Below, piece by piece: positions 31,144 through 33,277 of a stretch of 37,434 bases of DNA. The notes under the pieces are model-generated. The model ran no database searches. It was not told the origin of the DNA and worked only from the letters and a program-made list of their open reading frames with translations. Origin of the DNA: Ktedonobacteria bacterium (GTDB lineage Bacteria; Chloroflexota; Ktedonobacteria; Ktedonobacterales; JADMIN01); assembly GCA_027307065.1 (NCBI GenBank), contig DAHUXT010000003.1, positions 1 to 37,434 on the forward strand, read 5' to 3'. The position numbers and the translations under genes were made by a program. How positions within the stretch are numbered: the stretch's first letter is position 1; every line of letters starts with the position of its first letter.

Positions 31144-32505
31144 ATGCGTTATTACCAAGACATTCTCGAAACCATCGGCCACACGCCGCTTGTCCGATTG
31201 AACCGCATCGCACAGGATGTCAAGCCACTGATACTGGCGAAGGTTGAGTATTTCAACCCCGGTGGCAGTGTTAAAGATCGCATCGGCCTGTCACTCATCG
31301 AGGCGTGCGAACAGGCGGGAACCCTTAAACCGGGTGGCACTATCGTCGAGCCGACCAGCGGCAACACGGGCATGGGGCTGGCGCTCGCCGCCGCCATCAA
31401 AGGCTACCATCTCATCTGCGTAATGACCGATAAGGTTGCCGAGGAGAAACGGAGCTTGCTACGAGCATTCGGCGCCGAGGTCGTTATCTGCCCCAACAGC
31501 GTGTCCGCCGACTCGACAGAGAATTATCGAAACGTCGCGGCGCGGCTCGCGCGTGAGATTCCAGGGGCATGCAGCCCGAACCAATATGACAACCCGGCCA
31601 ATCCGCTGTCGCACTATCGCTCGACCGGCCCCGAAATATGGGATGATACCGACGGCAAAGTAACGGCGTTCATCGCGGGGGTGGGCACCGCTGGCACCAT
31701 TGTCGGCACGGCACGCTACCTCAAGGAGCGGAATTCGAAGATTCAGGTTATTGGCGCCGACCCGGCAGGCTCGGTCTATTCTCATGATGAATTGCACCCA
31801 TACAAAGTGGAGGGCATCGGGCAGGATGCCTACCCGCCCAATTGGGATGAGAGCGTTGTCGATAAGGTGATCCGCGTCGACGACCGCACATCGTTCCACT
31901 ACGCGCGCCGCCTCGCCCGCGAAGAAGGCATTCTATGCGGCGGCTCAGCGGGCACAGCCTTGGCCGCGGCGCTGGAATACGCTAAAGATGGCACCGCGGA
32001 CGATGTCGTGGTCGTCTTGCTGCCAGACACCGGGCGTGGATACCTCTCGAAGCAGTATAACGAGACTTGGCTGCGCGAGAACGGATTCGCCGAGGCTCCG
32101 GCACAGCCCACGCTCGCCGACGTGTTGGCATTCCGGCGACAGGCGGAGCCAGCAATGCCCGCTGTCATCGGCGTTTCGCCCAGCGACCCAGTGACAACCG
32201 CCATCGAGCACTTCCACCGCTACAGCATCTCGCAACTGCCTGTCATCGAGAACGGCAAAGTTGTTGGCTCGTTGACTGAGACCTCGTTGCTGCAGCGATT
32301 AGCGTCTGGTGATCGACTGGAGGAGCATATGGTCGGCGACTGGCAGAGTTCTCCGCTGCCTGCGATGCCAGAGACATCCACCGTGCGTGAGGCATACACA
32401 CTGTTTGCGGGCGGTCAGACGGCGATTGCGGTAACGGGCGCGCATGGCCTGAGTGGCGTGGTGTCGAAGAGTGATCTCATGGAGTTCTGGGCACGCAACG
32501 CCTAA
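31144..32505 (+). CDS. Cystathionine beta-synthase with C-terminal CBS pair
   Basis: NPGGSVKDRI (PLP Lys), EPTSGNTG, GVGTAGT, YKVEGIG, LPDTGRGYLSK, ISQLPV; GAGGA RBS before ATG 31144. Confidence 0.92.
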   Translation: MRYYQDILETIGHTPLVRLNRIAQDVKPLILAKVEYFNPGGSVKDRIGLSLIEACEQAGTLKPGGTIVEPTSGNTGMGLALAAAIKGYHLICVMTDKVAEEKRSLLRAFGAEVVICPNSVSADSTENYRNVAARLAREIPGACSPNQYDNPANPLSHYRSTGPEIWDDTDGKVTAFIAGVGTAGTIVGTARYLKERNSKIQVIGADPAGSVYSHDELHPYKVEGIGQDAYPPNWDESVVDKVIRVDDRTSFHYARRLAREEGILCGGSAGTALAAALEYAKDGTADDVVVVLLPDTGRGYLSKQYNETWLRENGFAEAPAQPTLADVLAFRRQAEPAMPAVIGVSPSDPVTTAIEHFHRYSISQLPVIENGKVVGSLTETSLLQRLASGDRLEEHMVGDWQSSPLPAMPETSTVREAYTLFAGGQTAIAVTGAHGLSGVVSKSDLMEFWARNA

Positions 32506-32800
32506 CGCGAACAGCAGGAGTTCGCTCGTGACGATTCCCGTTGGCGCGGACGATTCGGCCATTAGATTAACGATCAGTCCTGGGCAGGCAATGCCTGCAT
32601 TCGCGCTTGCTAATGCGGCAGGCGATATTGTCCGGCTTAAGTCATTCAAGCAGCGTCGCCCAGTACTGGTGGCGTTGCTCCACGGCAGCTCCTGCCCGCA
32701 GTGCCGCGACTGGCTGGCCACAGTGGCGCATGTTCAAGGCGAGTTGGCCGACCTTCGAGTGCAGCCCTTGCTCGTAGTGCCTGACGATGTCGAGCAGCTG

Positions 32801-32890
32801 CCCGCACTCCAGGCCGGCACGGGTGCGCCGAAGAAACCGCAGAAAACGAATAGTTTTTAACCCCGCACTCCAGGCCGGCACGGGTGCGCC
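32801..32890. repeat. Perfect 29-bp direct repeat (32801-32829, 32862-32890) around a 32-bp AT-rich unique insert
   Basis: CCCGCACTCCAGGCCGGCACGGGTGCGCC x2 flanking GAAGAAACCGCAGAAAACGAATAGTTTTTAAC. Confidence 0.97.
32801..32890 (-). CRISPR. Candidate single-spacer neo-CRISPR (off-target type I-E spacer integration)
   Basis: 61-bp unit; minus-strand repeat matches the E. coli I-E repeat at 12 of 16 central positions in register; no cas genes or leader in the window. Confidence 0.5.
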
Positions 32891-33277
32891 CGGTGTGTTC
32901 CTCTCAGACGCGGCTGGCGAGACACGGGCCCGGTTTTTATCCCGCAACGCACCATCGCTGCGCACGTCTGTCGTGCTCATTGCCGTCGACCAATACAGCG
33001 CCTGTCTGGAGGCGTGGCTGGCCAACGAACCGGGCCATTTGCCGACGATGGCCGAAGTGCTGGCAACCTTCGCCTTCGCCGAGCAAGAAGAGTGCGCCTG
33101 TGGCCTGCCCGCGTAGCCGAACCAGCAAGACAGCCAGTGACACCCTATGCGGCGCACTCCTCGGACAGATTTTTGACGGCCACGAGGGATTGACGCCGCC
33201 CACCCCGCCAAGCCTTGATGGTCGTCTTGACGGCGACTTGAGCACCCTGAATCCGCATGGTTGCACGAGAATTCTTG

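Follow-up and report, generated by a model that had tools for sequence, protein, structure and literature searches.

We report a 61-bp insertion that interrupts a redoxin gene in an uncultured member of the Ktedonobacteria and that is probably the product of a natural off-target integration by the Cas1-Cas2 integrase of a type I-E CRISPR system, a so-called 'neo-CRISPR'. The stretch of DNA that was analysed, referred to here as the window, comprises the 37,434 nucleotides of contig DAHUXT010000003.1 (assembly GCA_027307065.1). It is contig C333 of a metagenome-assembled genome (MAG; G000 in what follows) of 3.9 Mb in 559 contigs, with 62% G+C, a completeness of 85% and a contamination of 2.6%.

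Type I-E Cas1-Cas2, as known from Escherichia coli, duplicates 28-29 bp of its target on either side of 32-33 bp of new sequence. Both dimensions of the present structure (29 and 32) fit one type I-E unit simultaneously, and 61 is the shortest of the common periods in the array of another genome of the genus (G004). An earlier note on the window, written by a model from the letters and a list of open reading frames (ORFs), had proposed that the adaptation machinery acted here as an insertional mutagen. The disruption of the gene, the existence of filled and empty alleles and the I-E-sized unit all stand; the cas genes and the protospacer that the note had advised looking for lend no support so far, the former having not been found in the MAG and the latter in none of the sequences searched.

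The duplication and its insert

The two copies of the 29-nt sequence are 100% identical, form one repeat family and lie 61 nt apart from start to start (Table 1). Because the bases adjoining the copies are unlike (G at copy 1 and C at copy 2 on the 5'-side, and again G at copy 1 and C at copy 2 on the 3'-side), the duplication extends over exactly 29 bp, which leaves 32 bp for the insert. An alternative parse, into a 28-bp duplication and a 33-bp insert, is available since positions 32801 and 32862 are both C. The 33-nt insert then starts with G whichever strand is read, as position 32830 is G and position 32862 is C. An initial G that comes from the PAM (protospacer adjacent motif) is a rule of type I-E integration in E. 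coli, and the 33-nt insert fits it. The earlier note had placed this G at the start of a minus-strand spacer; the initial G holds but does not single out that strand, for it is there on either.

Only 11 of the 32 bases of the insert are G or C (34%), and equally AT-rich 32-mers make up only 0.2% of those in the genome. A repeat search and a base count reproduced in full the earlier description of an exact duplication around an insert of this composition. The 32 bp lack inverted repeats at their ends and occur only once in the genome, where the best other match reaches 19/32; the insert is therefore not a mobile element in its own right, and the concern that it might match the end of an integrative element or adjacent host DNA is not borne out within this genome. 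Being unique there and far more AT-rich than its host, the insert is to all appearance foreign DNA.

Nor does any other structure of this kind occur in the 3.9-Mb assembly. A scan for exact interspersed repeats of at least 18 nt, at most 300 nt apart, listed 19, the others being tandem coding repeats or differently sized, and a relaxed scan of the whole genome (at least 24/28 matching, periods of 57-66) gave four hits, of which the other three are tandem coding repeats. The earlier suggestion to look for further 28-29-bp duplications with 32-33-bp inserts has thus been followed and returned no other such structure in the assembly. At G000:C287:1580-1653, on a short contig that includes a run of N, two exact direct copies of 21 nt enclose 32 nt, with a period of 53; its dimensions are not those of type I-E.

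When the gene is read with one copy and without the insert, it continues for 528 nt and 175 aa with zero internal stops, which upholds the earlier claim that removal of the 61 bp restores a continuous redoxin ORF of that length. The read-through protein is colinear with its orthologues in G005, G006 and G021 (loci L003, L004 and L010) and free of gaps at the junction, and these orthologues are intact and without the duplication. Since the read-through frame is stop-free and the alignment gap-free, the 61 bp are an insertion into an otherwise undamaged gene. In the filled form, a frameshift of +61 parts the C-terminal portion from the N-terminal one, and the gene is knocked out because its frame is shifted and a stop codon has been brought in.

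Filled and empty alleles in environmental populations

Part of the window is present in 20 public sequencing runs from 15 studies, and the insert site was examined in four of these: X1, from mine drainage, and X2, X3 and X4, from soil in three other studies. In X1, a contig of 202 nt spans positions 32690-32891 in the filled form with 0 mismatches, at a word depth of 5.2 as against 4.9 and 3.3-5.5 for neighbouring contigs, and no joint of the empty allele was seen in this run. The contig comes from Logan, that is, from another assembler working at k=31, which is longer than the 29-nt repeat. The earlier note had raised the prospect that no reads would span the insert; this independent contig crosses it. 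X1 may be the source sample of the MAG or a sister of it, some X1 contigs differing from the window at a few places, and its support is independent in the assembler, not in the DNA.

In each of X2, X3 and X4, one contig joins position 32800 to position 32862 and skips exactly 61 bp, the 29 letters at the joint fitting either side; identity of these contigs with the window is 95-99%. The joints are the empty allele of the same species, which the earlier note had advised looking for and which is present in all three of the other runs examined. Because empty alleles occur in X2-X4 and the outgroup orthologues lack the unit, the empty form must be the older of the two and the insertion a recent event; we note alongside this that the two copies are still identical.

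Type I-E systems in the genus and in this genome

Of 41 sampled genomes of the order, 21 proved to have a Cas1 of some type; in the genus the figure is 1/8. In the order, arrays that lie beside Cas1 genes mostly show periods of about 70-77, with a few steps up to 100, and the exception is that of G004, which belongs to the same genus as the present MAG. Its locus L024 encodes Cas3, Cse2, Cas7e, Cas6e and Cas1e and scores as type I-E, the Cas1e protein reaching 387.9 bits with TIGR03638, where the cut-off is 215.6. After the operon comes an array in which the 29-nt repeat GCTGTCCCCACGCCTGTGGGGGTGAACCG occurs more than 70 times; its periods range over 60-66 (61, 62 and 63 being the commonest) and its spacers measure about 32 nt upward. 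The possibility, allowed for in the earlier note, that type I-E would be lacking from the genome and its relatives alike is answered by this full operon; the accompanying search for type I-E cas genes and a 61-bp array succeeded in a relative, G004, and not in the genome itself.

In the same locus (G004:C1:161000-180999) cse1 is split into two overlapping ORFs, and the spacers of the array are GC-rich and low-complexity-looking with unusually variable periods. The split gene and the variable periods suggest assembly errors, of a long-read or consensus assembly. A further type I-E repeat lies upstream of the locus, at G004:C1:160111-160139.

Type I-E repeats are more widely spread than the operon and were found in 5/8 genomes of the genus (G000, G001, G004, G005 and G006). 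G001 has two mini-arrays, whose periods are 60 and 61, besides a single isolated repeat, and G005 has one repeat; Cas1 was not found in either of these mini-array genomes. The loci concerned, L037 and L039 (G001:C51 and G001:C171) and L035 (G005:C48), are mini-arrays of 1-3 type I-E repeats, lack cas genes over the surrounding 1.5 kb and may be relics, collapsed assemblies or isolated arrays.

The present MAG has an orphan repeat of its own, GTTGTCCCCACGCATGTGGGGGTGAACTG, at C557:921-949 (L033:921-949). It matches the G004 repeat at 26/29 positions, the next best 29-mer of the genome reaching 20, and its 7-bp stem is perfect. Some 150 nt separate it from the end of a preceding gene that we take to be type I restriction R-subunit-like (hsdR-like). 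No cas genes and no second repeat were found near it, and its exact sequence was not found in other genome or metagenome contigs. The upstream hsdR-like gene is common to G003, G004 and G005 and the repeat region is not. At the very start of another contig (G000:C377:1-12), an 11/12 match to the 3' end of the orphan repeat was seen, which may mark where the trailer of an unassembled array begins or may be fortuitous, 12 nt being too short to discriminate between the two. Type I-E is the only system found in the genus with 29-nt repeats and, as the operon and the scattered repeats indicate, it is or was in the lineage, patchily spread.

Likeness of the target to a CRISPR repeat

We compared the empty site with the G004 repeat in the four registers that a duplication of 28 or 29 bp allows, taking all 29-mers of the genome on both strands as the null for the P values, and with the E. 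coli K-12 repeat taken from NC_000913.3. These comparisons, and that of dyad symmetry, are post hoc, having been picked after the data were seen. Against the genus repeat, the plus-strand register 0 scores 10/29, the minus-strand register -1 scores 11/29 and the plus-strand register +1, from 32802 onward, scores 16/29, with P of 0.0012 per 29-mer or about 0.005 after correction for four tries. In this best register, G 32830, the first base of the insert, sits at repeat position 29, and this is where the PAM-derived G of type I-E is predicted to lie.

Against the K-12 repeat, the site scores 14/29 on each strand (P of 0.012 each), the plus-strand score being found one base further on, which reproduces the minus-strand figure of the earlier note. 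The E. coli repeat as typed in that note differs from the K-12 repeat at one position, and a score of at least 14 is reached by 1.2% of the 29-mers of the genome. The 29-mer has, furthermore, a centred dyad symmetry whose 5-bp arms are CGCAC and GTGCG (P of 0.011), as might be expected of the target of a two-fold symmetric enzyme.

As the best match of 16/29 lies on the other strand than the register chosen in the earlier note, the orientation of the event is ambiguous; the alignment with the repeat of relatives that the note had advised is best in register +1 of the plus strand, and in its own register there are 12/29 matches. True type I-E repeats, those of G004 and G001, form a 7-bp stem, and their folding is better than that of shuffled sequences (z of -1.4 and -3.0). 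Rfam gave no match for the neo-repeat, nor for the true type I-E repeats, and is hence uninformative.

Proposed mechanism

We infer that Cas1-Cas2 was the enzyme, and propose the following course of events. Cas1-Cas2 would have captured a fragment of about 32-33 bp of AT-rich foreign DNA, presumably from a mobile element. The integrase would then have missed the leader-proximal repeat of an array and made two staggered strand transfers, 28-29 bp apart, in the redoxin gene, where the attacked stretch is moderately repeat-like and dyad-symmetric. Repair of the gaps would have doubled the 28-29 bp between the cuts to give target copy, spacer and target copy, with a gain of 61 bp, and the frameshift together with the incoming stop codon would have knocked out the redoxin. 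The earlier note went further and saw the event as seeding a new array. We find no evidence that the unit works as a CRISPR array: it has one spacer only and no special hairpin, with no sign of processing or further growth and nothing that points to function.

Evidence against Cas1-Cas2 and alternative explanations

Several observations weigh against the action of Cas1-Cas2. In the MAG, profile searches found neither Cas1 (PF01867; TIGR03638) nor Cse1 (PF09481), tblastn with nine ORFs of the G004 type I-E operon returned nothing at E 1e-3, and no CRISPR array was found; because the MAG is 85% complete and in 559 contigs, the cas genes are described here as not found rather than as absent. In the genus, the Cas1 of type I-E occurs in only one of the eight genomes, that of G004. 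The source of the insert was likewise not found. No exact match was seen in viral, metagenome or genome contigs, in a scan that a single mismatch would escape; blastn against phages and plasmids gave short, chance-level hits only (E of at least 0.2); and a search of 169 genomes of the order with up to three mismatches matched only the insert itself. The protospacer and PAM search set out in the earlier note thus came back empty on both counts. The G+C content of the insert falls outside the range of the 71 G004 spacers (0.56-0.81), with the best of which it shares 15/32 positions. Natural spacers are mostly without a known match, about 10% having one (PMC8616872).

The target itself also provides points on this side. 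Its likeness to a repeat appears modest, at 12-16/29, and lends moderate support; the minus-strand register of the earlier note, at 12/29, stands at chance level against the genus repeat (P of 0.073); the best repeat register and the register of the centred dyad are one base apart; and the neo-repeat folds no better than shuffles (z of +0.5 and +0.1). Lastly, the filled allele was seen in one of the four examined runs, and that run is not independent of the window.

The missing cas genes and protospacer, a base composition unlike that of the spacers of the related array, and a moderate repeat likeness that emerged from post hoc tests speak for an insertion that had nothing to do with CRISPR and came from some unknown integrase or transposase whose cuts lie far apart, or from the repair of a staggered double-strand break in which a filler fragment was captured, its type I-E size being coincidental. 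We consider such an origin unlikely. Coincidence would have to account for two dimensions at once, 29 and 32, both of which fit the genus's only system with 29-nt repeats, and for the occurrence of no other such structure in 3.9 Mb. The target duplications of bacterial transposons are mostly of 2-15 bp and those of casposons of 14-15 bp, which counts against an enzyme of the transposon type.

It is very unlikely that the structure is an artefact of sequencing or assembly, whether a chimeric molecule or a loop in a de Bruijn graph. The window does come from a fragmented metagenome assembly of 559 contigs, the filled form is known from one run only and the duplicated length of 29 equals a common k, being the k-mer size of some assemblers, but the k=31 assembly by a second assembler is identical over 32690-32891, and a single chimeric read could give neither the depth of about 5.2, like that of the neighbours, nor the lack of an empty joint in X1. 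That the filled form came first, and that recombination between the copies then deleted the unit to give the empty alleles, we reject as barely credible, for although 29-bp direct repeats can delete the DNA between them, an intact gene (175 aa, stop-free) exists in the empty form alone, the two copies are identical, and the reading is contradicted by the outgroup orthologues, three other species of the genus or family having a continuous gene with no duplication and a different site sequence.

Relation to known systems

Off-target integration by type I-E Cas1-Cas2 into the E. coli genome was reported by Nivala, Shipman and Church (Nat Microbiol 2018), according to PMC7054753 in cells that overproduced Cas1-Cas2 and were fed oligonucleotides; for two other species, that work is credited in bioRxiv 10.1101/148544 with 'circumstantial evidence' only. 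With Pyrococcus furiosus in vitro, off-target sites are described as sharing features with repeats (PMC6698737), and off-target acquisition is given as one of three proposed origins of orphan or isolated arrays (PMC13142298, citing Shmakov et al. 2020).

The present structure resembles the E. coli neo-CRISPRs in that a repeat-length piece of the chromosome is doubled around a spacer-length insert, outside arrays and with the size of the type I-E unit. It differs in its setting, which is a wild, uncultured population in place of cells with overproduced Cas1-Cas2 and supplied oligonucleotides, and in being the sole form in run X1 and knocking out a gene; a further difference, which belongs with the points that weigh against Cas1-Cas2, is that no cas genes were found in the present MAG and no source for the insert. 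The event thus probably adds a natural case to a kind already known, one in which the defining geometry is found and a resident cas1-cas2 pair is not.

The isolated mini-arrays of Shmakov et al. are similar in having one spacer and two repeats, in lying away from cas genes and in that stray integration is invoked for them. That study, which appeared in CRISPR J in 2020, reportedly recognised such arrays by the likeness of their repeats to the resident CRISPR repeat. Here, by contrast, the doubled sequence is plain coding sequence (12-16/29) and the empty allele is directly seen. The array of G004 (L024) and the mini-arrays of G001 (L037, L039) share with the present structure a 29-nt repeat, spacers of about 32 nt and a period of 61; their repeats have the 7-bp stem and the better-than-shuffle folding, neither of which is found in the duplicated redoxin site. 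Transposons and casposons, too, generate direct repeats around inserted DNA by a staggered cut and fill-in. Their inserts bear genes and have defined ends, unlike the 32 bp without inverted ends found here, and the duplication here is longer.

Significance

Natural off-target integrations caught in the act are rare, and what makes the present case of note is that filled and empty alleles are both seen in environmental populations of one species, with a gene destroyed. If confirmed as the work of Cas1-Cas2, it would supply field evidence of a mutational cost of CRISPR adaptation and would also provide a defined natural substrate, of which both the empty site and the product are known, for the study of the target requirements of the type I-E integrase.

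We also offer, as a tentative and rather doubtful extension, that the scar records CRISPR adaptation in a line without a cas operon of its own, which the line either lost or never had. Cas1-Cas2 would in that case have been supplied briefly by a mobile type I-E island, or have acted just before the loss of the operon, and would have hit a chromosomal gene, after which the knock-out would have spread through a wild population. Were this extension true, neo-CRISPR scars would be fossils in which CRISPR systems that were lost, or that only visited, could be read, and the present one would be direct field evidence that adaptation is mutagenic. Such a cost could help to explain the patchy distribution of cas genes in the genus, in which type I-E Cas1 is found in 1/8 genomes and type I-E repeats in 5/8.

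The redoxin gene and its surroundings

By the similarity of its product, the interrupted gene encodes a redoxin of the AhpC/TSA family, which has a thioredoxin fold. Residues 18-92 of the translation of 32528-32827 match PF00578 (AhpC-TSA) with an E value of 5.5e-10 and 39.7 bits, above the cut-off of 26, and a CxxC motif (CPQC) is present. The two of the three orthologues that were scanned against PF00578 gave 50.4 and 44.1 bits, over a longer matched stretch. The GTG start at 32528 is that chosen in the earlier note, the mechanical ORF being 32453..32860.

Table 1. Positions in the window of the parts of the interrupted redoxin gene and of the inserted unit
Feature	Position	Strand	Remarks
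N-terminal redoxin fragment	32528..32860	+	CPQC kept; ends at TAA 32858-32860 inside the insert
Target copy 1	32801..32829		Codes PALQAGTGAP; centred 5-bp inverted repeat CGCAC/GTGCG
Spacer-sized insert, apparently foreign	32830..32861		32 bp; 11/32 G+C; unique; no terminal inverted repeats
Target copy 2	32862..32890		Identical to copy 1
C-terminal redoxin remainder	32862..33116	+	Original frame, stop 33114-33116; frame of ORF 32787..33116; tblastn to L003, L004, L010

An ORF of 109 aa at 32787-33116 has its ATG start upstream of the insert in another frame and crosses the insert into the C-terminal redoxin frame, and the C-terminal fragment could in principle be translatable from it. This redoxin family also has a conserved C-terminal motif, FAFAEQ(E/G)(D/E)C(A/G)CGLP, which places a second pair of cysteines outside the Pfam AhpC/TSA match and is located at 33060-33113 in the window and in the orthologues of L003, L004 and L010. 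An Atlas search returned clusters of cystathionine beta-synthase only, most frequent in Actinomycetota, which we do not read as placing the organism. The gene is flanked on one side by a cystathionine-beta-synthase-like gene (PALP and CBS domains) and on the other by a gene for the solute-binding protein of an ABC transporter.
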